Positions 301 through 16,322 of a stretch of 32,000 nt of DNA are shown piece by piece. The notes below the pieces were generated by a model. It did not search any database and was not told where the DNA came from. It saw only the letters and a list, made by a program, of their open reading frames with translations. Numbering within the stretch: the first letter of the stretch is position 1; each line of letters begins with the position of its first letter. Source of the DNA: Telmatocola sphagniphila (lineage in GTDB: Bacteria; Planctomycetota; Planctomycetia; Gemmatales; Gemmataceae). Location: positions 6,000,001 through 6,032,000 of the forward strand of contig NZ_CP074694.1 of NCBI RefSeq assembly GCF_018398935.1, given 5' to 3'. Position numbers and translations under genes: made by a program.

Positions 301-584
301 AATGGAGCCAACGCGCGGTCGGACGGGATCTGACTCACTCGTCCGCTAAGAATTGAGTCCCGGCCAATTATCTCGCGCCCGGCCCGAAAATATTTGAATT
401 TTTCACTTCGTCATCAGGTGCCCCCAATTCGATCCCTTTTCTCGCATTCCTTCCCTCTCACGACTCGCTCATCAACCGCCGTTTTATCAGAGTGACTGAA
501 GAGAATTTTCTCAATTTGATTGAGTTCCGCTGATGGCATCAAAGAAATTATGCCGCAGTAGAAAAGCCGGATATTTTTGGCCTC

Positions 585-599
585 TGGCGCACCAGTTGC
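585..599 (+). promoter_or_regulatory. Candidate sigma-54 (-24/-12) promoter for the polysaccharide operon
   Basis: TGGCGCACCAGTTGC matches the consensus TGGCAC-N5-TTGC at 9 of 10 specified positions, with the invariant GG and GC at correct spacing. It lies about 100 bp upstream of an in-frame GTG (706) of the first operon gene. A sigma-54 activator gene is adjacent to the operon. Confidence 0.45.
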
Positions 600-705
600 G
601 ATTAGTAGCTCATCGAGATCAGGAAAATTCATCGCAATTATAGGGGATCTTAAAGTGGCAGCAGTCTTACTCGATGCGGAACCCATCGCAACAGTTAAAG
701 CCCCC

Positions 706-1350
706 GTGCGACGGCCGATTCCAGAAGCCGGTTTGGCCGTAGGGCGACTCTATACCATCGCAAAGCGAACGACCGACATCGTGGTTGCTCTCGGTGCGAT
801 CATCGCTCTGGCCCCTCTGGGCTTCGTGGTGGCACTGCTTATCAAGCTGACCGACATGGGACCGGTTTTCTTCGTCCAGAAGCGAATCGGCAAAGACGGT
901 AAAGCCTTCTCCTTCATCAAGTTCCGCTCGATGATCGTGAATGCCGATCAGTTGAAAATGACCTTGAGCAAGCATAGCCATCACGGGGACAGTATCACCT
1001 TCAAAATGAAACGCGACCCCCGGATTACCTGGATTGGTTCGATAATTCGCAAAACGAGCATTGACGAACTGCCACAACTGTTCAATGTTTTAACTGGCGA
1101 GATGAGTCTGGTAGGTCCGCGACCCGCCGTGCCTTCAGAGGTGGCCCGCTACGAACCCCGCCATAAGGGTCGTCTGGCCGTGCAGCCGGGTATCACTTGC
1201 ATCTGGCAGGTTCGGGGACGAGGCGACATCCCCTTCGAACAACAGGTCAAGATGGACTTGGAATACATCAACCGTCGGTCCTGGTGGTACGACCTGATAC
1301 TGATGGTGGAAACGGTTCCCGCAGTTTTAACCGGCCGTGGCGCTTACTAA
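706..1350 (+). CDS. Polyprenyl-phosphate sugar-phosphate transferase (bacterial sugar transferase family, small WbaP/EpsL-like form); priming enzyme
   Basis: Single TM helix ([25 protein letters not shown]), then family motifs [62 protein letters not shown] and PGITCIWQV. The stop at 1350 is firm. The start is uncertain: the ORF track uses TTG 577; in-frame GTGs at 655 and 706 lie downstream of the sigma-54 motif. Confidence 0.9.
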
Positions 1351-1381
1351 TACACTCGATCTTCATCAGGAGTTTACGACC

Positions 1382-2251
1382 ATGCAAATGACCATGATCA
1401 CCCCTAGCTACGGTCCCGATTTCGATCGTTGCAAGATGTTAGTCAACAGCGTAAACAAATACGTTCCCGATACTGTCGAACACGTTCTACTGGTGGATCA
1501 GCGAGACGAGGCTCAGTTCCAGAAGCTGGCCAGCTCGCGAACCCGGGTGATGACCGTCGAATCGGTTCTGCCCTGGTGGATCATGCGGCTGCCGATGGCT
1601 CGACGCTGGTGGTTCAGCTTCAAGTCGATGCCGGTCCGCAACTGGATCTTGCAACAAGTGGTGAAACTGGGTGTGGGCGAACACATCGAATCGGCCAACT
1701 ACATGTTCGTCGATTCGGATGTATCCTTCATCCGGCCGATGAACCTGGGCGAATTTACCGACGAGCAGGGTAAGCTGGTGCTCTACCGCAACCCGACCAT
1801 GGGCCGCACGGACATGCATGCCCCCTGGCACATGACCGCCGCGAAGCTGCTCGGTTTCTTCCCTTGCGATTATTTCGGGGCCAACTACATCGGCAATCTG
1901 ATCACCTGGCGCCGCGACAATCTTCTCATGCTGTACAAGCACATTGAGACGATGACTGGCATGGGGTGGATGGAAGCGATCTGCCGACAGTGGCACCTGT
2001 CCGAATATATTCTCTACGGTGTCTTCGTCGAGCACGTCCTCAACGGTCGCGGTCACTTCTTCGAGAAGTCGAACCATTGTGCCGTCAGCTGGGGTCGGGA
2101 AATTCACACCGAAGAAGGAATGGAAGGCTTCCTCTCCTCTGTCGAACCCGAACAGTGCGCGGTGATGGTTTCCTCGAAGCAGTATATTCCGGTCAGCTTC
2201 TACTCCGATAAGCTCAAGCGATTCGAGCAAGTCTCCAGCCAGATTCGGTGA
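1382..2251 (+). CDS. Uncharacterised GT-A-like (nucleotide-diphospho-sugar transferase-like) protein
   Basis: Starts MQMTMITPSYGPDFDRC, as expected for a GT-A first strand. DSD (FVDSDVSF) is a DxD-like motif. AGGAG lies 9 nt upstream of ATG 1382 (the track start, GTG 1337, overlaps the previous gene). The gene sits inside the glycan operon. I could not assign a family without an HMM search. Confidence 0.6.
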   Translation: MQMTMITPSYGPDFDRCKMLVNSVNKYVPDTVEHVLLVDQRDEAQFQKLASSRTRVMTVESVLPWWIMRLPMARRWWFSFKSMPVRNWILQQVVKLGVGEHIESANYMFVDSDVSFIRPMNLGEFTDEQGKLVLYRNPTMGRTDMHAPWHMTAAKLLGFFPCDYFGANYIGNLITWRRDNLLMLYKHIETMTGMGWMEAICRQWHLSEYILYGVFVEHVLNGRGHFFEKSNHCAVSWGREIHTEEGMEGFLSSVEPEQCAVMVSSKQYIPVSFYSDKLKRFEQVSSQIR

Positions 2252-2255
2252 GACT

Positions 2256-3692
2256 GTGTTTCAGATCTTTTCGTTGATGATTGTGATCGGGATCCTCAGC
2301 CTGGCTTCCCGATTCGGCGCCCAGAAAGCCCTTCTCTATGCCTGGCCGCCCGCCATGCTTTTGCTGCCGGTCTGGATGATCATGGAAGTCGGGTCTCTGA
2401 CACTCGACTTAAGAACCGTAGCCGAAGTGACCATCCTCGTTTCCTTTCTTCTATTCCCGGAAGAAGCTCCGCGTCTCAAAGTCAATTTCTGCGATCTGGC
2501 CGTGCTGTTTCTCTTAGGCGTTCAGGTCGTTTCGCAGTTTCATGCCGGTTCCATCGGACCCCTGACGGTTCCGGAAATCGCCCGCAAATGGCTTCTTCCC
2601 TACCTGATGGGCCGGCTCTTTTTCCGCAGTGAAAAAGACCTGACAACCGTGCTGAATATGCTCTGTCCGATGCTGGTCGTGCTCACCGCTCTGACCGTTT
2701 TCGAATGCTTCGTGAAAATCAATCCGATCAATAAAGCCCTGGGGATGAGCTTCGGCTTGCTGGAAGAAGGGGAGGGCTATCGCTGGGGCATGAAAAGAGC
2801 GCACGTCACCTTCAATCACCCGATTTTCTTCGGGATGATGCTGGTGCTGATGCTGCCCTGGTCGCTGGAAGCAGGCCGGAGGGCCAAAACGGGGGAAGGG
2901 CCGCGCTGGTGGCGGCATATGCCCAAACTTTTAGGCCTCTCTCTATTCTGCTGCGTCTCGCGCGGTCCCCAGCTGGCTGGCATGTTCACGGCGGTTGCCT
3001 ATTTCTTCTTCCGGACGCCAAAAGCCCGCATACCGATGATATGTTCGGCCTGTGCCTTAATTTTCCTGCTGCAGGCGAATAAGGACGTCATCGTCGAATT
3101 GCTCGGCAAAGCGGCGGGCGAAACTCAGGATGAGAAAAAGATGATCGACATCGACGGCGAGGAGTACGAGTACAGCGGAACGACGCATCGAATGCTGCTG
3201 TTTAAGGTTTACGACAAATCGATTCAGGCCGCGGGATTCTTCGGATTCGGCACCGAGATGAAAGGTGTGGTGGTAGATGAAGAACTGCAGCAGACGTTCG
3301 GTTCAATTGATTGTCATTACTTAATGTTCCTGCTGCAGCATGGCTGGTTCGGCGTCGGGGCCTTTGTGATTCTCATGTTGGCGGTTGTTATCAAATTGGG
3401 TCGCCGCGCGTTGCAAATTGAGAAACCGGGATCGGCTTTAGCGGCGGGACTCGCCGGAGCTATGGCCGGAGTCGCAATGTTGCTAGTATCTGTGTGGTTT
3501 TCCGTTGATTTTGCGGGTGTTTGGATTTTTTCGGCCGGATTGGCCAGCGGTTTGCAATTCCCTCCTTCAACAGGAATGAAAGTGGTTCGAAGTGTAATCA
3601 CTCCACGGAAAAAGCAAACTAAGATTGAGGCGAAGCCGAGACGGTATCTCACTCCTCCTCGGCCAATCGAAAGAGACACACACCATGCGTAA
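2256..3692 (+). CDS. O-antigen ligase/polymerase family membrane protein (Wzy-like)
   Basis: About 10 or more hydrophobic helices. Wzy_C-type motifs are present: RAHVTFNHPIFFGMMLVLMLPW, SRGPQLAGMF, AGFFGFGTE and HYLMFLLQHGWFGVGAF. GTG start at 2256, with an alternative ATG at 2277. Confidence 0.8.
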   Translation: MFQIFSLMIVIGILSLASRFGAQKALLYAWPPAMLLLPVWMIMEVGSLTLDLRTVAEVTILVSFLLFPEEAPRLKVNFCDLAVLFLLGVQVVSQFHAGSIGPLTVPEIARKWLLPYLMGRLFFRSEKDLTTVLNMLCPMLVVLTALTVFECFVKINPINKALGMSFGLLEEGEGYRWGMKRAHVTFNHPIFFGMMLVLMLPWSLEAGRRAKTGEGPRWWRHMPKLLGLSLFCCVSRGPQLAGMFTAVAYFFFRTPKARIPMICSACALIFLLQANKDVIVELLGKAAGETQDEKKMIDIDGEEYEYSGTTHRMLLFKVYDKSIQAAGFFGFGTEMKGVVVDEELQQTFGSIDCHYLMFLLQHGWFGVGAFVILMLAVVIKLGRRALQIEKPGSALAAGLAGAMAGVAMLLVSVWFSVDFAGVWIFSAGLASGLQFPPSTGMKVVRSVITPRKKQTKIEAKPRRYLTPPRPIERDTHHA

Positions 3693-4680
3693 CATCAACT
3701 CCCCGAAGATTCTGATCATCAGTCCCGTGAAGGACGAAGCGGAATACCTCGAACGGACGATCAAGTCGATGGCCGCGCAGACTCTTCTGCCCGCTCGCTG
3801 GATCATCGTCAATGATGGCAGCAAAGACAGCACGGGAACGATTGCGGAAACCGCCGCTCGCGAACATGGCTGGATTCGCGTGCTGCATCGCGAAAAAGGC
3901 CCCCGCCGCGTGGGGCCCGGTGTCATCGAAGCTTTCTACGCCGGCCTGGAAACGGTGGATCTCAACGATTTCGATTATGTCTGTAAACTGGATGGGGACA
4001 TTGAATTTCAGCCCGGCTACTTCGAAGAAATGATTAGCCGGTTCGAAGCGGACCCCCGACTGGGCACCGCCAGCGGCAAATGCTTCATCCCGGTCAATGG
4101 CGAATTCGTCTACGAGCGAACCGGTGATGAGTTCTCTCACGGGGTGGCCAAGCTGTTCCGCCGCGAGTGCTTCCAGGAAATTGGCGGCTTCGTTCGCGAA
4201 GTGATGTGGGATGGCATCGATTGCCATCGCTGCCGGATGCTCGGTTGGAAAGCCGTCAGCTATCAGGACGAAGATTTGCGAATCATTCACCTGCGTTTGA
4301 TGGGTTCCTCGCAGAAAAGCGTTTTCCACGGCCGGATGCGATGGGGCCGCGGCCAGTACTTCATGGGCACCCATCCTCTGTACCTGCTGGGGATCGCCTG
4401 CTACCGAATGCTCGAACGTCCCTGGATTCTCGGCGGCATGTGCATCCTGTTCGGTTACCTGAAAGCAGCTCTCACCAGCCATCGACAATACGGCGACGCC
4501 GAATTCAAACGCCATCTGCACGCCTGGCAGTTGCGTAAGCTGTTCGCTCCGGTGTTGCGAAGGATTCGCCCGGCGACCGCTGCCATCGCCCTGAAAACGG
4601 TTACTCCGGCGTCAGTCAAAAAACCGGCCGCTTCCACGACTATCAAACAGAACGTTGTCCGCGAACTCGAACTGGTATAA
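3685..4680 (+). CDS. Family 2 glycosyltransferase
   Basis: ILIISPVKDEAEYLERTIKSMAAQTLLPARWIIVNDGSKDST is a classic GT2 N-terminus. KLDGD is the DxD-type motif. There is a C-terminal membrane-associated segment. ATG 3685 overlaps the upstream stop by 8 nt; the track start at 3625 is probably an extension. Confidence 0.9.
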   Translation: MRNINSPKILIISPVKDEAEYLERTIKSMAAQTLLPARWIIVNDGSKDSTGTIAETAAREHGWIRVLHREKGPRRVGPGVIEAFYAGLETVDLNDFDYVCKLDGDIEFQPGYFEEMISRFEADPRLGTASGKCFIPVNGEFVYERTGDEFSHGVAKLFRRECFQEIGGFVREVMWDGIDCHRCRMLGWKAVSYQDEDLRIIHLRLMGSSQKSVFHGRMRWGRGQYFMGTHPLYLLGIACYRMLERPWILGGMCILFGYLKAALTSHRQYGDAEFKRHLHAWQLRKLFAPVLRRIRPATAAIALKTVTPASVKKPAASTTIKQNVVRELELV

Positions 4681-6042
4681 ATGAACGCACTCGTCACCCC
4701 CCCGACTGTTCGCAGTGTACCGTCCCTGAAGATTCGCACTGCGGAAAAGAAACTCTGGAGCGGCATCCGCTGGTCGGCGGCCGCTCAAATTGCTACCATG
4801 TTCGTCCGACTCGGTAGCACCTTGATCCTCACCCGACTCCTCCTGCCCGAAGCATACGGCTTGTTCGGTACGATGATGGTTGTCATGACCACCGTCGAGC
4901 TCCTCTCTGACATCGGAATGCTCCCTGCACTCCTCAGACATCCGCAGGGTGATCAGCCACGATGGCTGCTCGTGGGTTGGTGGATCGGGTTTTTTCGTTC
5001 CGCAGGGATAGCCGCGGTTCTGGTAATGGCGGCCTATCCCATGTCTATGTTCTACGGCCGGCCGGAACTGTTCGGACTGATGGCCGTGGTTTCGCTGCGT
5101 CCTTTCCTCCTGGGCATGCGCAGCCCGGCCATGGTCTTGTTCCGCCGCAAGATGGATTACCGGGCTCTGTTCATCGACGAATTTACACAAACAGTCGTCG
5201 GTGTCGGCGTCAGCGTGCTGCTGGCCTGGAAGATTCAAAGCATCGGAGCCTGGGCTCTGGTGGTGGGAACGATCGCCGGGGCTCTCTCCGGATTAGTGGT
5301 CTCCTACATTCTGGCCCCGTTTCGCGTTCGCTGGCTCTGGGACTGGACCGTCGCCCACGAACTGGGCGGGTTCGGACGAATGGTGTTCCTCAATACTTTG
5401 GTGATGGCCTTCTGGCTGGGGTTGGATCGCTTCGTCGGACCCTGGTTCGTCAGCTTCGAAGCGATGGGTTTTTACATTGTCGCCATGAATCTGGCAGCCG
5501 TGGCCGAAGGGCTCCTCACCCGCGCCACCGATGTCTATTTCTCGTCCATTTTGCAATCTCCGAACGAAGCGGAACGGGCCCTACGGCATCAGAACTATGT
5601 CAATAAGCTCTGCAGGATCGGGATGCCCTTGGGGTGTCTGGCGGCCTTGTCGGCCCCGCTCGCCGTGGCCATTCTTTACAAGCCGAACTTCGCCGAATGC
5701 GGATTGATTCTGGCCGTCTTGCTCGCGCGACTACTGCCGCGGGCTCTGGGCCAGCTCGATTTCCAAATGCTCCTGGTTCGGGGTACGCTGCGGCCCTCCA
5801 TCAGCGCCTATCTCCTCGGCGGTGTGGTGCATGGGGCCATGATCCCGCTGATGATGCACTGGCTGGGAACGGTGGGGTTGGCCATGTCCTGCCTGCTTTC
5901 GACGGTTGTGGTCACCTTCGTGCAGAATCATTATTCGGGCTTGGATGATGGGAAGGGCAGCCGACGCTTGATGCTCTCCGTTCTCTGGGGAGCCTGGGGA
6001 ATTGCCGGAGCAGCCGGGCTGGCAGTGCTGCTGATTCGCTAA
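4681..6042 (+). CDS. Polysaccharide/oligosaccharide flippase (Wzx, MOP superfamily)
   Basis: The N-terminal Polysacc_synt-like segment is WSAAAQIATMFVRLGSTLILTRLLLPEAYGLFG. About 12-14 TM helices. The ATG directly abuts the GT2 stop codon. Confidence 0.85.
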   Translation: MNALVTPPTVRSVPSLKIRTAEKKLWSGIRWSAAAQIATMFVRLGSTLILTRLLLPEAYGLFGTMMVVMTTVELLSDIGMLPALLRHPQGDQPRWLLVGWWIGFFRSAGIAAVLVMAAYPMSMFYGRPELFGLMAVVSLRPFLLGMRSPAMVLFRRKMDYRALFIDEFTQTVVGVGVSVLLAWKIQSIGAWALVVGTIAGALSGLVVSYILAPFRVRWLWDWTVAHELGGFGRMVFLNTLVMAFWLGLDRFVGPWFVSFEAMGFYIVAMNLAAVAEGLLTRATDVYFSSILQSPNEAERALRHQNYVNKLCRIGMPLGCLAALSAPLAVAILYKPNFAECGLILAVLLARLLPRALGQLDFQMLLVRGTLRPSISAYLLGGVVHGAMIPLMMHWLGTVGLAMSCLLSTVVVTFVQNHYSGLDDGKGSRRLMLSVLWGAWGIAGAAGLAVLLIR

Positions 6043-7529
6043 CTGACTCCGACGATTTTGGAATCGCCGGAGAAGATATCGAGATCGATATCGTAGCGTT
6101 TGATCTTCCGATAGATGGTCGCCTGGCTAAGGCCGATCATCGACGCGGCGTCCCGCACATTACCCCGCGTCTGCCGCAAAGCTTCTTCGATCGCCTGCTT
6201 TTCCACTTGATCGACCAGCCGCATTCCGTCCTTGCCCGAGGGCGAGGGGAGAGTGAATTCGAACTGCGACGAAGTGTTCACACAGGGTTCGACCGGCTCG
6301 GCGAATTCCACGTGAGCGTTCGAAGGGGGCCGTTTGACGTCCAGTTTCTCCGAAAGCACTTCCTCCTGCAGCATATCGGGACCGACTTCCCCGGTGGGGC
6401 TGAGAATCGCCATTCGTTCGACGAGGTTTTCCAATTGCCGAACATTGCCCGGCCAATCGTAGGAACTCATGGCGGTCAGCGTTTCCTGTCGGAAATGCAG
6501 ATCGACGCGACCGTAACTGAGCGCGGCACGCTGGAGGAAGCGGGCGGCCAGTTGCGGAATATCTTCTTTGCGTTGCCGCAGCGGTGGAACGCGAATGGGC
6601 ACCACGTTCAGGCGATAGTAAAGGTCTTCGCGGAATTGCCCTTCGCGGACCCGTTCGAGGAGATTTCGATTGGTTGCTGCGATGACCCGAACATCGACCT
6701 GCACCCGTTTGGGACTGCCGACGCGCTGCACAGTGCGTTCTTGAAGGAAGCGCAGAATTTTGGCCTGCAGAACGACATCCATTTCGCCGATTTCATCGAG
6801 AAATAAAGTGCCGTTATCGGCCAGTTCGCAACTCCCCGCCTGCGATTTGTCGGCCCCGGTGAAGGCCCCTTTTTCGTGGCCAAAAAGTAAGCTCTCGGCC
6901 AGGTCGCGCGGCAGAGCGGCCATGTTGATTGGTACGAAGGGGCCGCTGGCTCGACGACTGAGTTCATGGACGCTCTTGGCGACCAGTTCTTTGCCGGTAC
7001 CGCTCTCGCCCAGAATGAGGACCGAGGCATCGGTCTGGGCCACACTGCGAATCAACCCGACGACCTGTTGCATGGCCGGGCTGTCGCCGAGGAGTTTGAT
7101 GCCGGTCGGGGCGGTTTGAACGTACTCTTCCAGTTCCTGGATGCGGCGATTCATCGCCTGCTTTTCGACGGCGTGCTTGATCGAGACTTTCAGTCGATTC
7201 AGATCGGGTGGCTTGGTCAGAAAATCGTAAGCCCCCAGTTTCATGGCCGCGACGGCGGTATCGATCGAGCCGTGCGCGGTCAGCAGGGCCACCATCAGAT
7301 CGGGGGCCAGTTGAAGTAGCTGCGGGAGCAATTCCAGGCCGTCGGTGGTTCCGAAACGCAAATCCAACAGCAGGAGGGTGGGCTTATAGTTCGAGAGTAA
7401 AGCCAAAAGGGTACGTTTGTCGTTGGCAATTACAGTGCTGTACCCCCAGCCTTCAATATGACGTGCCAGTAACACCGTGACATCGGTGTCATCATCGGCG
7501 ATCATGACCAGGGGAGTCGTGGGTTTCAT
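6039..7529 (-). CDS. Sigma-54-dependent response regulator (REC + AAA+ + Fis-type HTH; NtrC/AtoC/PrsR-like)
   Basis: REC domain: VMIADDDTD, LLLLDLRFGTTDG, TAHGS, KLGAYDFLTKP. AAA+ domain: GESGTGKELVAKSVH, GAFTGA loop (HEKGAFTGA), DEIGEM, RVIAATNRNL, FREDLYYRL. HTH: NVRDAASMIGLSQATIYRKIKRY. The start is taken at ATG 7529 (MKPTTPLVMIADDD); the track start at 7700 adds 57 non-domain residues. Confidence 0.93.
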   Translation of the reverse strand: MKPTTPLVMIADDDTDVTVLLARHIEGWGYSTVIANDKRTLLALLSNYKPTLLLLDLRFGTTDGLELLPQLLQLAPDLMVALLTAHGSIDTAVAAMKLGAYDFLTKPPDLNRLKVSIKHAVEKQAMNRRIQELEEYVQTAPTGIKLLGDSPAMQQVVGLIRSVAQTDASVLILGESGTGKELVAKSVHELSRRASGPFVPINMAALPRDLAESLLFGHEKGAFTGADKSQAGSCELADNGTLFLDEIGEMDVVLQAKILRFLQERTVQRVGSPKRVQVDVRVIAATNRNLLERVREGQFREDLYYRLNVVPIRVPPLRQRKEDIPQLAARFLQRAALSYGRVDLHFRQETLTAMSSYDWPGNVRQLENLVERMAILSPTGEVGPDMLQEEVLSEKLDVKRPPSNAHVEFAEPVEPCVNTSSQFEFTLPSPSGKDGMRLVDQVEKQAIEEALRQTRGNVRDAASMIGLSQATIYRKIKRYDIDLDIFSGDSKIVGVS

Positions 7530-7712
7530 TAATTCGCCAGCTGCAATGAATCGATCTGCCGGAACCCAAGGGGGGTACGGTAGCTCGATTCCGAGATTAC
7601 TACACAGCAAGCTTAACTTTTGTTTGAGCCCCGTGCCGAAAAAATGGCATTTTTTCAGATAAGAGCAGAATTGGTAGCGGAAGGAGTGGGATTTTCCCAT
7701 CTAAAAGGAGAC

Positions 7713-12585: not shown

Positions 12586-15204
12586 TCAGCAGACCGTGGC
12601 ACTGACCACTTTACGCTTGCGCCGCCACACGAGGATTCCCACCAGGGCACACCCCATCAGGAGCACGTGGGCCGGTTCCGGCACCGGGATGAACGCCACC
12701 TGCAAAGCATCGCTGGAAGCGTGGATGTACTGAACCAGCGGTGTCCCGGCGTATTGGCCGGTGATATTGAACAGGCTGGTGACATCCCCGGCTGTCAATC
12801 CCGTGATGCTGGAGTACTGGGCGAACGTGTAAACCTGCGTGGTGCCATTACTGGAACCGGTCGTGAAGGCGTTAATCTGCAGATTCAATTTATTGGAAGT
12901 GCTGATTCCAGTGAGATCCAGCACGGCGCCCGTGCTACCGACGATCACGTTATTATCCACACCCGGATTGGGATTGGTCGCACCGTTGTTGTAATTGAGA
13001 ACAAAGGTGCTGCCGCCCGCCATCACCACATTTCCCGTGGTCAATTTCCCGGTAGTTGAAGGGGCCAGGGTGCCGCCCCTCTGTAGGGTCAGGGCGGAAC
13101 TGACCGTGCCGGTACCGGATAACGTTCCGCCCGATGTAACGACCGTATTGCCCGTGCCGTTGATTGCACTACTGACGGTGTAATTGCCACTGATTTGCAG
13201 GGTGGCGCCACTGCTGACAATCGCTTTGCCGGTGCCGGTATAGCTGCCGCTGACGACCAATGTTCCCTGATTGATGAGGGTGTTGCCGGAGTAAGAGTTG
13301 GCGGCCGAAAGATTGAGCGTGCCCGACCCGGTTTTCAGCAGGTCGGCATTACTGGCCCCGGTAATCGCACCGGCCAGGACCGTACTATCGCCGCCCGCTC
13401 CGCCGATGACCCGAATTTCGCGCAATTGGTACGGGATGGCGGAGCCATTATCGAGTTGGATCGGGTTGAGAAAAGTTAAGACGGCATTCGATTTGGTGGA
13501 ACCGAAAATCAGGGCGTAGCCGTCGCCAACGAAGTTGGTGGAATTCCATTGGAGAGTGGAGGGAGTTGCGTTCCCACCAATGTTCACGGAAGCGTTGCTG
13601 CCGAAGGCCGAGAATCCGCCACTGCCGACTTCATTCGTCGTACCCGCCCCCCAGGTGACGTTGCCAGCCGCCGCCCCAAGTCCGCGAGTGAAGTCTGCCG
13701 AACTTCCGGTGCCATTGGAGCCGTTTTGAATCTCGAGAACTCCACCAGTCAGCGAGATTACGCCGTTACCCGAAGATGTGAAGCCGACTTGGGCATTATT
13801 CGCTCGGACCGTGCCGCCGGCGATGACGAAACGGTTGGTGGTAGTCAGAGTATTTTGGCTGGTCGAGCCGGAGAGAACTACGAAGCCCGGTCCGCCGAAG
13901 GAAGTCGGATTCCCCGCATTGGCGACCTGCAGACCACTGATGGTCAATGTCGTGTTGGGGTTGTTGACATAGATGTAACGGGTTCCGGATCCGCCGAACA
14001 AAGCCGTGGAATTTGCGGAAATCGCGTAATCGGTTGCCCCATCGAGCATCAGGGCGTTGGTGGCGAGGTTGGAAGCGCCTAGCGTGAGTGTGAGTCCCGC
14101 GGCGGCTGGGGTGATACGCAGCGAGCCATTGGTAATCGTCGCGCTGGGGTTGCTACCGGTGCCATCGGGATTGAACTGCACGCGATCGGTCGCGGCATAG
14201 GTCTGCAATTTACTGGGATCGCTGGCAGTCTGCGTCGGAGTGGCGCGAACAATGCCATTCGTTGCATTCCAGGTGGCAAAGTCAGTACCGCCTGCATCCG
14301 TGACGATGGCATAGCCGAAGGTGCCACCGCCCGAAGTGTTCGAGAGAAGGCCGTTGGCTCCCAGGAAGGGGGTACCTGCGAAGGTGATGCGTGCCCCATT
14401 AACATCGCCCAGGTTTCCCGTGGTGGCGATAAATTCGTAAATCCCGCGCGTTCCCGGTCTCGTGGTGAAGCCCGCTGCCGAATTCGCGAAGACGAGCGTG
14501 GTCGCTGCTCCATTCGGGGTGACTTTGAAACTGTTGACGCCGCCGATCGTGTTCGCACCGGCCGAGAGGGAGCCCACGTTGAAGGTGGTTCCCGAGGAGT
14601 TCCCGATCAACTCAAAAGTCCCGCCGCCTGTGACCGTCACCAGATTACTCGTCGCGGAACCGAAGCGAGCGATATTATTCACCGAATTGTCGACTTGCAG
14701 ATAGCCGCCACCGACCACGATATTCCCCAAGTTGGTAGTGGCGGTGGAAGTTCCTTTGAAAACCAGCGTGCTGCTGGTGTAAACGTTCAGATTGAGAAGC
14801 GAGGTAGCGCTGGATCCGGAGAGGGCGGGGCCGTTGAGATTGTAAGTCGCCGGGCCGTAGGTGGAGATTCCCGTCGATGCCGTCCCCCCGACGGTAAGCG
14901 TGCCGCTACCGGAGAAGTTCCAGCCGCCCAGGTTTTGATTCGGGGCGAAAGTGACGGAAAGTACGGCTGTGGCCGAGTTCAACTGAGGATCGGATACTGT
15001 GGAACCATAGCTGGAAGAGTTGATGGAGAAAAGAGCCAGATCTGCGGTCGAGGGGGGCCCGCCGGCCGGGCTCCAACTCGTTCCGCTGGTCCAATCGGTG
15101 CCCAGATTGTTCCAGGTGTAGGTGGCTGCCTGGGTCGATTGGGATAATCCCAAAAGAATGGCGAGGGAGGCTAACGATCGCTTTCGGGATAATTCGAATT
15201 TCAT
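12586..15204 (-). CDS. PEP-CTERM-anchored secreted protein with autotransporter-associated beta-strand repeats
   Basis: Signal peptide ...LAILLGLSQSTQAATYTWNN. PATR-type unit LLKTGSGTLNLSAANSYSGNTLINQGTLVVSG. C-terminus: IPVPEPAHVLLMGCALVGILVWRRKRK. Confidence 0.92.
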   Translation of the reverse strand: MKFELSRKRSLASLAILLGLSQSTQAATYTWNNLGTDWTSGTSWSPAGGPPSTADLALFSINSSSYGSTVSDPQLNSATAVLSVTFAPNQNLGGWNFSGSGTLTVGGTASTGISTYGPATYNLNGPALSGSSATSLLNLNVYTSSTLVFKGTSTATTNLGNIVVGGGYLQVDNSVNNIARFGSATSNLVTVTGGGTFELIGNSSGTTFNVGSLSAGANTIGGVNSFKVTPNGAATTLVFANSAAGFTTRPGTRGIYEFIATTGNLGDVNGARITFAGTPFLGANGLLSNTSGGGTFGYAIVTDAGGTDFATWNATNGIVRATPTQTASDPSKLQTYAATDRVQFNPDGTGSNPSATITNGSLRITPAAAGLTLTLGASNLATNALMLDGATDYAISANSTALFGGSGTRYIYVNNPNTTLTISGLQVANAGNPTSFGGPGFVVLSGSTSQNTLTTTNRFVIAGGTVRANNAQVGFTSSGNGVISLTGGVLEIQNGSNGTGSSADFTRGLGAAAGNVTWGAGTTNEVGSGGFSAFGSNASVNIGGNATPSTLQWNSTNFVGDGYALIFGSTKSNAVLTFLNPIQLDNGSAIPYQLREIRVIGGAGGDSTVLAGAITGASNADLLKTGSGTLNLSAANSYSGNTLINQGTLVVSGSYTGTGKAIVSSGATLQISGNYTVSSAINGTGNTVVTSGGTLSGTGTVSSALTLQRGGTLAPSTTGKLTTGNVVMAGGSTFVLNYNNGATNPNPGVDNNVIVGSTGAVLDLTGISTSNKLNLQINAFTTGSSNGTTQVYTFAQYSSITGLTAGDVTSLFNITGQYAGTPLVQYIHASSDALQVAFIPVPEPAHVLLMGCALVGILVWRRKRKVVSATVC

Positions 15205-15363
15205 GTAGCTCAGTCCAAGTAGGATTAAACCGTCAGGTCCTTAAAGGTAAATTTAAGTTAGCGGTAATCAGGATTGACCGAGTGAAGACTGGATGAATTT
15301 TAAGTTAAGCTTACTTTTGGTTGTGTTGCTTTTGGCGCGTCGCACAACAGCTACAAAAGAGAA

Positions 15364-15385
15364 CCACCCGCCTTTTGGCGGGTGG
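15364..15385 (-). terminator. GC-rich hairpin with a T-tract (intrinsic-terminator-like) inside the upstream region of the PEP-CTERM gene
   Basis: CCACCCGCC / TTTT / GGCGGGTGG, a perfect 9-bp stem. On the minus strand it is followed by TTCTCTTTTG. It lies 160 nt upstream of the start codon at 15204. Confidence 0.5.
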
Positions 15386-15440
15386 TAAGGGGTAATTGGT
15401 GTGATGTTCGACCTGAGGGATAGAAAGGAGACTCGATCGA

Positions 15441-15571
15441 CCGTCGGGGGGGATGACGGGGGATTTCGCCGGGGGGAGGCTTGATCCCAGGGATCGGTCT
15501 TTTCCCGAAAACCATCACTTTATAGGGGGGAGTGATAACTTTCGGTGTCTAACATTCGGGGGGGAGTGTTA
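15441..15571. other. Array of four stem-loops whose loops are G6-G7 runs (C6-C7 on the minus strand)
   Basis: A: CCGTC (15441-45) / GACGG (15455-59), loop GGGGGGGAT. B: GGGATT (15460-65) / GATCCC (15483-88), with inner GCC/GGC and loop GGGGGGA. C: ATCACT (15514-19) / AGTGAT (15531-36), loop TTATAGGGGGG. D: TAACATT (15550-56) / AGTGTTA (15565-71), one G-U pair, loop CGGGGGGG. Confidence 0.6.
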
Positions 15572-15587
15572 TGACGAAAGAATACAT

Positions 15588-15603
15588 AGCAGGGCTCGTG
15601 CCA
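15588..15603 (-). promoter_or_regulatory. Candidate sigma-54 (-24/-12) promoter
   Basis: The minus strand reads TGGCACGAGCCCTGCT against the consensus TGGCACG-N4-TTGCW. The -24 hexamer is perfect and GG/GC spacing is exact. It is intergenic, about 385 nt upstream of the PEP-CTERM CDS. Confidence 0.45.
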
Positions 15604-15735
15604 AAGCCCGGAGAAATTTTGGTTCTGAATTGTAAGTGTAGATAGAGAAAGGGTTTGCAGTGCGTTGGCTTGCTCGGATTTTAATAACTGAATGCGGCTT
15701 TTGAAAAATCTACATCCCTTTCAGGCTTGTAACAA

Positions 15736-15750
15736 TTGCAATTATTGCAA
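15736..15750. promoter_or_regulatory. 15-bp perfect palindrome TTGCAAT-T-ATTGCAA (possible operator)
   Basis: Read directly. It is intergenic and AT-rich. A 6-bp hairpin (GGACTC/GAGTCC, 15762-15782) and a CGGGACTC direct repeat (15760-67, 15791-98) follow it. Confidence 0.3.
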
Positions 15751-15869
15751 AGCTTACTCCGGGACTCAATGCGAAGGAGTCCTAAATGATCGGGACTCCC
15801 CGTTGAAAAGCTGAATCGCAAACTTGGGGGAAATAGACAGTTTGGGAAATTGAATGTACAGTGGGCCAA

Positions 15870-16322
15870 TCAACCCATCAGGGAGCCCGGGGTGTATTGA
15901 CGCTCTCCCGCCAAGGGGGCGGCCAGTCCCAACTGACGGAGAACACGAGTATTTTCGAACTCGAGACCGACGAGATGGCCAATATCGAGAACCAGCAAGG
16001 ATTCCTGAAGCGATTCTTCGCCAGTCGTTTGCTTGTGGCGGGATCGTTGGATCACCAGAAGCGCTCGCTGATCGGGGAGCAGACAGATAGCGTCCGCACT
16101 AACTCGCCCGCTGGTGATCCGCGGTGCGTAAACTTTGTTGCCACCACCCATAATGTGGTCCGGGCCGGGCGTTTTGACAGAGGCATCTGCAGCGACAATT
16201 GCAATACAGGGGCCATGCCACGATTGGCTTTCGCCGAAGATTTTGATGAGAAGTCCCAGGTCCATGATGCGAACTCGGAGAAAGGGTCGATACCGGTACA
16301 GTTCAGTTCTCAACTGTAACAT
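15870..16322 (-). CDS. Hypothetical protein (150 aa); strand assignment uncertain
   Basis: Two fully overlapping antisense ORFs: 15870-16322 (-) and 15861-16319 (+). By hand count, GC3 is about 59% for minus and 65% for plus, so it is not decisive. The minus product has a more protein-like hydrophobic pattern. No motif was recognised on either strand. Confidence 0.3.
   Translation of the reverse strand: MLQLRTELYRYRPFLRVRIMDLGLLIKIFGESQSWHGPCIAIVAADASVKTPGPDHIMGGGNKVYAPRITSGRVSADAICLLPDQRALLVIQRSRHKQTTGEESLQESLLVLDIGHLVGLEFENTRVLRQLGLAAPLAGERQYTPGSLMG

Follow-up and report, generated by a model that had tools for sequence, protein, structure and literature searches.

An intergenic array of four C-run hairpins between a sigma-54-type promoter motif and an intrinsic terminator in Telmatocola sphagniphila, a candidate small RNA

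In Telmatocola sphagniphila (Gemmataceae, Planctomycetota), an intergenic region between two minus-strand genes combines a sigma-54-type promoter motif, a row of hairpins with homopolymeric loops and a terminator. What does this arrangement serve: does it encode a regulatory RNA of its own, or does it belong to one of the genes beside it? The whole stretch of DNA analysed here, referred to as the window, comprises 32 kb. An earlier reading of the locus (the original prediction) had described four stem-loops at 15441-15571, with loops of G6-7 on the plus strand and C6-7 on the minus strand, and a near-consensus sigma-54 motif at 15603-15588 on the minus strand. Both were found as described. The element is a real, well-delimited, non-coding unit and a good candidate for a small RNA (sRNA) of a known functional kind. 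Its parts, in the order in which a minus-strand transcript would contain them, are listed below.

15588-15603, minus strand: sigma-54-type -24/-12 promoter motif TGGCACGAGCCCTGCT, with the GG and GC dinucleotides correctly spaced and one mismatch to TGGCAC-N5-TTGCW
15547-15575, minus strand: hairpin D, the 5'-terminal stem-loop, with a C7 loop run at 15564-15558; minimum-free-energy helix of 10 pairs, run unpaired with a probability of 0.86
15505-15545, minus strand: hairpin C, with the 15-bp stem CCGAAAGUUAUCACU/AGUGAUGGUUUUCGG and the loop CCCCCCUAUAA; run unpaired with a probability of 1.00
15423-15504, minus strand: predicted Y-shaped domain, in which the long-range helix GAAAAGACCGAUC / GAUCGAGUCUCCUUUC surrounds hairpins B and A in the minimum-free-energy and centroid structures
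15460-15488, minus strand: hairpin B, with an outer GGGAU/AUCCC helix, an inner GCC/GGC helix and the loop UCCCCCC (run 15476-15471)
15483-15495, minus strand: alternative small hairpin GAUCCCUGGGAUC, -5.3 kcal/mol, competing with the outer helix of hairpin B
15441-15459, minus strand: hairpin A, with the stem CCGUC/GACGG and the loop AUCCCCCCC (run 15452-15446), -6.4 kcal/mol; run unpaired with a probability of 1.00
15354-15386, minus strand: intrinsic terminator, ACCACCCGCC-AAAA-GGCGGGTGGT plus TCTCTTTTGT, with a 10-bp stem (8 G-C pairs), an AAAA loop and the tail UCUCUUUUGU

The C runs of the minus strand, read as G runs on the plus strand, lie at 15446-15452 (7 nt), 15471-15476 (6 nt), 15525-15530 (6 nt) and 15558-15564 (7 nt). 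They make up four of the 14 G or C runs of at least 6 nt in the window, and all four fall within 119 nt on one strand. With 14 runs placed at random, the probability of at least four same-strand runs within 120 nt is 3.5e-5. The minus strand from 15590 to 15350 folds with -77.6 kcal/mol (z = -5.79), a value that none of 200 dinucleotide shuffles equalled, and the plus strand gave z = -3.65. Folding of the predicted transcript leaves the C runs unpaired with a probability of 0.86-1.0; three of them lie wholly inside apical loops no longer than 12 nt, as does the fourth apart from its first C. When the flanks were shuffled and the runs kept fixed, a mean of 0.25 runs and a maximum of two fell in an apical loop (300 trials). 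Array and terminator exceed chance. The predicted RNA, composed of 37% C and 18% G, would begin with hairpin D, then hairpin C and the Y-shaped domain that bears hairpins B and A, after which about 35 nt of spacer lead to the terminator. Three of its four loops read (A/C)CUCCCCCC, and loop B together with its closing bases reads CCUCCCCCC.

The hairpins differ in strength. Hairpin C is strong (-15.8 kcal/mol on the minus strand), and its continuous stem includes three G-U pairs that exist on the minus strand only; on the plus strand these are C-A mismatches, and the stem splits into two short helices around an internal loop. Hairpins D (-7.1 kcal/mol) and A are moderate on the minus strand. 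Hairpins C and D have CACUCCCCCC in common. The GATCC/GGATC pairing at 15483-15497, which had been put forward as an alternative structure, is real; its sole competitor is hairpin B, not the terminator.

The terminator reaches -21.4 kcal/mol, and a U tract follows its stem on the minus strand only. The original prediction had recognised it, with a stem counted as 9 bp instead of 10. Terminator-like sites number 18 and 17 in the two halves of the window, equal to the shuffle expectation; since this site ranks first among all of them, it is not simply one among many. On the other side of the array, TGGCACGAGCCCTGCT is the sole match in the window to the strict motif regular expression, and sites with at most one mismatch to TGGCAC-N5-TTGCW occur three times against 0.79 expected. 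The motif gains its credibility from its position about 12 nt (one promoter-to-start distance) ahead of the first hairpin, on the strand that also carries the terminator. Counting 12 nt from the -12 C places the predicted transcription start near 15577. A sigma-54 enhancer-binding protein with a GAFTGA loop is encoded inside the window, and the rpoN gene lies outside it. Promoter motif, hairpins and terminator are closely spaced and share the minus orientation. Upstream of the array on the plus strand no promoter-like site was detected, sigma-70-like sites included, and the sole plus-strand terminator-like site (15481-15497) is weak and lies in the middle of the array.

The element is non-coding. 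Two open reading frames (ORFs) overlap it, with codon scores of -0.28 and -0.46, compared with +0.19 to +0.47 for the genes of the window and a mean of -0.42 for off-frame controls. The former is a 55-aa ORF that contains PPP and runs through the terminator. It was considered as a leader peptide and rejected, given its score of -0.28 and the position of its start codons within the stem of hairpin C.

Of the explanations considered, we favour a free-standing sRNA of about 220 nt that depends on sigma-54 and acts in trans, with its four C loops as seeds for G-rich mRNA sites, and we give this reading a tentative probability of about 0.42. The minus-strand sRNA is the best supported reading because promoter and terminator face that way, because hairpin C has its 15-bp stem only there and because the ORFs are non-coding. 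From these features we infer transcription, its dependence on sigma-54, the ends of the transcript, its action in trans and the nature of its targets. Sigma-54 RNA polymerase, switched on by an enhancer-binding protein, would start near 15577, transcribe about 220 nt and stop at the intrinsic terminator, with the 3' end near 15356. Each of the four apical loops would then display an unpaired run of 6-7 cytosines. By analogy with the cuckoo/CcsR and 6C RNAs described below, these loops may act as redundant seeds that pair with G-rich single-stranded sites in mRNAs and alter their translation or stability. Some read-through into the downstream PEP-CTERM gene is conceivable, so that the unit might also dampen that gene. 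An sRNA of this type had been among the readings offered originally; it fits the anatomy of the locus best, both signals lying on the minus strand, and none of the loci searched beside relatives of the flanking genes contains a homologue.

Sigma-54-dependent sRNA genes have precedents. Qrr1-5 and CrcZ are transcribed from -24/-12 promoters with the help of NtrC-family activators, which gives tight on/off control. The Qrr RNAs act by Hfq-dependent base-pairing and are not known to have C-run loops; in CrcZ, A-rich (CA) motifs serve to sequester the Hfq/Crc protein complex. The C-loop layout itself, for which the original prediction knew of no described RNA family, is not unprecedented, because the cuckoo and 6C RNAs display hairpins with C-rich loops (PMC4615179, PMC6486639). 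Cuckoo RNAs (Rfam ar14, RF02344; CcsR1-4, RF02791; RSs0680; SmelA075/A099) consist of two to four adjacent hairpins with variable stems and a C-rich, anti-Shine-Dalgarno-like CCUCCUCCC in each loop (PMC4615179). In Rhodobacter, the RSs0680/CcsR cluster has a terminator-like hairpin after the array, is transcribed with an alternative sigma factor (RpoHI/HII) and shares its transcript with a small, conserved ORF just upstream; in a set of 2,680 genomes, family members turned up in Alphaproteobacteria only (PMC4615179). The Telmatocola element resembles these RNAs in its hairpins, in the motif shared by three of its loops, in the terminator that follows and in a 131-aa ORF upstream. Four adjacent hairpins are predicted, within the cuckoo range, though B and A are nested in the longer helix of the Y-shaped domain. 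The loops CCCCCC(C), CCCCCCUAUAA, UCCCCCC and AUCCCCCCC do not carry the cuckoo sequence CCUCCUCCC; loop B with its closing bases matches it at eight of nine positions and is the sole near match. The host belongs to the Planctomycetota and the promoter is of the -24/-12 type, unlike the RpoHI/HII-dependent cluster.

The 6C RNA of Actinobacteria (RF01066; B11 in mycobacteria) has C-rich loops of at least six C that bind mRNA directly, a chaperone being unneeded thanks to the G-C-rich pairing (PMC6486639). The C6-7 loops of the Telmatocola element are predicted to be unpaired and may, by analogy, bind mRNA. In contrast to 6C, which has two C-loop hairpins, one of them the terminator, the Telmatocola element has four, and its terminator loop is AAAA; the host phylum differs as well, and there is no sequence similarity. 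Rfam searches at gathering scores matched no family in the window, and at E-values up to 10 they returned only a nematode small nucleolar RNA and a terminator-type match for 15250-15700. Neither RF02344 nor RF02791 matched at either level, and 6C (RF01066), the CsrB/RsmY/RsmZ-type families, Qrr and CrcZ gave no match, which leaves the element outside the described Rfam families. Hence, the element shares the C-rich-loop principle with cuckoo and 6C RNAs but belongs to neither family, because loop motif, covariance models and host all differ.

The genes around the element, and a further sequence feature upstream of it, bear on the alternatives.

12586-15204, minus strand: downstream gene, encoding an 872-aa protein with autotransporter-associated beta-strand repeats (PATR) and a PEP-CTERM tail (Pfam PF12951 and PF07589)
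15870-16265, minus strand: upstream gene, encoding a conserved, uncharacterised 131-aa protein; 266 nt separate its stop codon from the promoter motif
6039-7700, minus strand: NtrC-family sigma-54 enhancer-binding response regulator of 553 aa, with a receiver domain, an AAA+ domain with GAFTGA (residue 278) and a Fis-type helix-turn-helix
15760-15799, no strand assigned: possible upstream activator site, with CGGGACTC present twice (15760 and 15791) and the inverted repeat GGAGTCC/GGACTCC, from a repeat search

The ATG start codon of the PATR/PEP-CTERM gene, at 15204, is 150 nt 3' of the terminator and 383 nt from the end of the promoter motif at 15588. The 872-aa protein is 100% identical to one that NCBI lists for T. 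sphagniphila, and it recurs on a Logan assembly contig (L001) with called genes that mirror those of the window. The 131-aa protein matched no Pfam or NCBIfam model; it has 44 representative homologues at 50% clustering (best E = 7e-36, full-length alignment), conserved motifs that include GPC, GPD, YAPR and SGR, and a gene with a codon score of +0.25. The wider window is a polysaccharide-type locus with a flippase, a glycosyltransferase and a Wzy-like protein. A sigma-54 activator 8 kb from the array had been noted before; the protein is indeed of the NtrC family with GAFTGA, and its gene extends to 7700 and not to 7529. It falls below the cut-off of every NCBIfam equivalog, with 406 bits against the 502.6 required for PEP_resp_reg (TIGR02915), and NtrC scores higher. 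It is a candidate activator of the array promoter, although nothing ties the two together. The 15760-15799 repeats lie about 185-220 nt upstream of the predicted start, and activator sites of sigma-54 promoters are expected about 80-200 nt upstream; short repeats of this type are common, and their role as an activator site is put forward from the sequence as an inference only. At 15727-15757, some 125-150 nt upstream of the promoter motif, stands an AT-rich palindromic stretch, TTGTAACAATTGCAATTATTGCAAAGC; binding or bending could take place here, between the putative activator site and the promoter.

The main rival to the sRNA is a 5' leader or attenuator acting in cis, which we consider possible but hold with reserve. 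The sigma-54 promoter would in that case serve the PEP-CTERM gene through a 373-nt leader containing the array, the terminator would halt most transcripts and the short RNA would be a by-product; expression would come from read-through, brought about for instance by a C-loop-binding protein or by processive antitermination. It ranks as the main rival because sigma-54 promoters before PEP-CTERM genes are documented in Proteobacteria, a point on which the original prediction was silent, as it was on the 131-aa gene upstream. Haft et al. (2006) reported that over 65% of PEP-CTERM genes form operons of their own, with more than 200 nt of non-coding DNA ahead of them, and that in Proteobacteria a sigma-54 motif precedes 99 of 167 of them, 23-221 nt (mean 71) before the start codon (PMC1569441). 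The Telmatocola locus has a -24/-12 motif in a long non-coding region before a single PEP-CTERM gene and is of the exopolysaccharide type, with a flippase, glycosyltransferases, a Wzy-like protein and an NtrC-type response regulator; the closest PATR homologue (60% identity, L006) directly precedes a sigma-54 activator gene. The distance of 383 nt, however, exceeds the described maximum, and the hairpin array and a strong terminator stand in between. The described system with PrsR/K/T was reported in Proteobacteria only and is absent from Rhodopirellula (PMC1569441), and the regulator scores below the PrsR model TIGR02915, as given above. Where motif 1 of that system, 17 nt long with TTTACA as its end, precedes the sigma-54 motif by 32-92 nt, the Telmatocola locus shows only a CTTACA about 27 nt upstream of its motif, the ending alone being compared. 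Inspection revealed no segment complementary to either arm of the terminator, and no alternative pairing able to compete with the 10-bp stem was found for the cis leader, proposed earlier as a terminator/antiterminator switch and a serious rival still. None of the PATR homologue loci examined has a -24/-12 motif or a similar leader. The sRNA and leader readings are not mutually exclusive.

The element might instead be lineage-specific sequence with no regulatory role beyond termination, such as a decayed repeat or a duplicated C-run hairpin unit. It was found in no related locus, hairpins C and D share a sequence, and planctomycete genomes do carry homopolymer-rich hairpin repeats. Those repeats, however, are tandem and pair a C run with a G run in the stem, whereas the runs here are unpaired and all stems differ, and the unit is bounded by promoter motif and terminator in the right order; we consider this explanation unlikely. 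Still less probable is that the array forms part of a 3' untranslated region of about 515 nt belonging to the 131-aa gene, with the terminator ending its mRNA, the hairpins stabilising or processing it and the -24/-12 match being fortuitous. That gene is real, conserved and on the same strand, no other terminator-like site was found between its stop codon and 15386, chance alone would give about 0.8 motifs of such quality per window, and Rhodobacter cuckoo RNAs are co-transcribed with a small upstream ORF (PMC4615179). Its homologues, however, lack a comparable downstream region, and this reading explains neither the four loops with a common C-run theme nor a motif placed exactly one promoter-to-start distance before the first hairpin. 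Function of the plus strand is very improbable. Two earlier suggestions, a GGA-loop sponge RNA (here for a CsrA-type protein) and a G-quadruplex-prone DNA or RNA element, are in keeping with the GGGGGGA of each plus-strand loop and with hairpins D, A and B, which are somewhat more stable on that strand. Both are disfavoured: there is no promoter-like site upstream, the weak mid-array site would halve the array, the strong terminator lacks its U tract, hairpin C loses its continuous stem and no CsrB/RsmY/RsmZ-type match was obtained in Rfam. The G tracts, moreover, lie 18-48 nt apart, a spacing too long for a conventional quadruplex.

Several observations weigh against the sRNA reading. The -24/-12 motif is not significant by itself. 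Hairpin B is weak, with an inner stem of 3 bp and -3.5 kcal/mol, and depends on its outer GGGAU/AUCCC helix; hairpin D is more stable on the plus strand, at -12.3 kcal/mol with one G-U pair. The documented position of PEP-CTERM genes as single-gene operons behind long non-coding DNA, with a sigma-54 motif in Proteobacteria, agrees with a leader, as does the stretch from the terminator to the PEP-CTERM start codon, in which no sigma-70-like promoter was detected. An anti-Shine-Dalgarno mode of action would find few obvious targets, since only a few of the window's 20 genes are preceded by a recognisable Shine-Dalgarno sequence; the targets may therefore be other G-rich sites. The neighbouring PATR/PEP-CTERM mRNA contains two GGGGGG runs of Gly-Gly codons. 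Furthermore, no homologue was retrieved beside relatives of the flanking genes; the element is therefore a single-genome prediction, and this is the main weakness of every functional reading.

A possible target was also examined within the neighbouring gene. Loop A with the 3' arm of its stem (CCCCCCGACGGU, 15441-15452) is a perfect 12-nt complement to 14884-14895 of the PEP-CTERM mRNA (ACCGUCGGGGGG, TVGG codons), a segment that itself resembles a G-loop hairpin. The match was rejected as evidence, since shuffled RNAs average about one such 12-mer per window.

Relatives of the element were sought at loci with homologous flanking genes. In public data T. sphagniphila stands alone: its flanking proteins have homologues of 57-63% identity at best, in a different gene order. 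Six PATR/PEP-CTERM homologues (L002-L007, 49-63% identity) have unrelated upstream regions with no element, C-run cluster or comparable leader; two of these contigs start about 310 nt upstream of the gene. The closest homologue of the HEAT-repeat protein (57%, L008) has different neighbours, and neither its locus nor the five loci (L143-L147) of three homologues of the 131-aa protein contain any of these features. A search of all homologue loci with the element using nhmmer returned the self-match only. Two of the PATR loci have features of their own. On L003, 3540-3690, upstream of a metagenome PATR homologue, about eight copies of the palindrome-like unit TTGGCAACCTTGCCAA are present; this array could be a repeated protein-binding site, and its unit resembles paired -24-like TTGGCA half-sites. 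On L006, the PATR/PEP-CTERM homologue gene (310-4641) is followed directly by its sigma-54 activator gene, which encodes GAFTGA and lacks a receiver domain. This arrangement hints at a recurrent link of the PATR/PEP-CTERM family to sigma-54 control in Gemmatales.

Genome collections were searched with a pattern of three CTCCCCCC runs, which is unspecific. The planctomycete matches among those listed for it are tandem hairpins with the C run paired to a G run, and were set aside as unrelated. Short hairpins of this kind, each with a C6-8 run paired to a G6-8 run (for example CCCTCCCCCC-AGGGGGGAG), stand in tandem on L025 (6175-6242), L049 (3008-3300), L050 (2305-2600) and L034 (6673-6812). These REP-like repeats derive from metagenome-assembled genomes of Planctomycetota and Gemmatales and are often found where contigs end.

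Metagenomes were scanned for a -24/-12 motif plus two CTCCCCCC runs, which yielded 14 loci and no Telmatocola relative. Eleven of the 14 represent one conserved RNA family of environmental Coriobacteriia, a taxonomy assigned from DinG homologues.

L130, 9410-9540, minus strand: 6C/ar14-like RNA of Coriobacteriia, about 90 nt and conserved, with matching places in L131-L133, L135-L138 and L140-L142

In this family an invariant TGGCAC-N5-TTGCT is followed by a gap of about 30 nt, a hairpin with the loop CUCCUCCCCCCUCAG and a terminator hairpin with the loop UCCCCCC, five pairs of the terminator stem showing compensatory changes. Most loci have pafB/pafC-like WYL genes directly downstream of it. 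Its scores stay below the Rfam thresholds, with 30.2 against 58.8 for ar14 and 28.5 against 47 for 6C. To our knowledge Actinobacteria lack sigma-54, and a -24/-12-type motif in an actinobacterial lineage is therefore unexpected. The Coriobacteriia RNA and the Telmatocola element are alike in having such a motif, hairpins with CUCCCCCC in their loops and a terminator, and differ in that the former has two hairpins, a C loop inside the terminator itself and a length of about 90 nt. Scored with a covariance model (R1) of nine Coriobacteriia members, the Telmatocola element reached 6.8 bits over 15351-15444 (E = 2.7), which is at chance level and does not surpass other chance matches in the window. 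By sequence comparison, then, the C-loop building plan recurs elsewhere, and the Telmatocola element is homologous to nothing retrieved. A further locus, L134 11349-11441 (plus strand), is a separate, unrelated unit on a 268-kb metagenome contig of 63% G+C; it has TGGCACGTCGTCTGCA, then three C6-7 runs and a terminator (GGGGGTCTTTTTTT).

The sRNA and the leader could also be combined in one reading. The element would then be the first regulatory sRNA defined in Planctomycetota, a sigma-54 RNA with four C loops that coordinates surface and exopolysaccharide proteins. It would act in trans on G-rich sites, for example the Gly-Gly runs of the PATR/PEP-CTERM mRNA, and would in addition place a terminator-based gate on that gene, the cuckoo/6C principle having arisen convergently in a third phylum. 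We regard this fuller version as doubtful.

We know of no base-pairing sRNA characterised in Planctomycetes, with which a narrow literature search is consistent, and the sigma-54 regulons of this group have been little explored. C-rich-loop sRNAs occur in Firmicutes too, besides Alphaproteobacteria and Actinobacteria. If the element were only a leader or a terminator, it would be an ordinary feature of one gene. If it is transcribed as predicted, the C-rich-loop sRNA principle would gain a third distant lineage and a new promoter class. Its proximity to a gene for a PEP-CTERM surface protein may, in addition, bear on the control of these poorly understood sorting substrates outside Proteobacteria.

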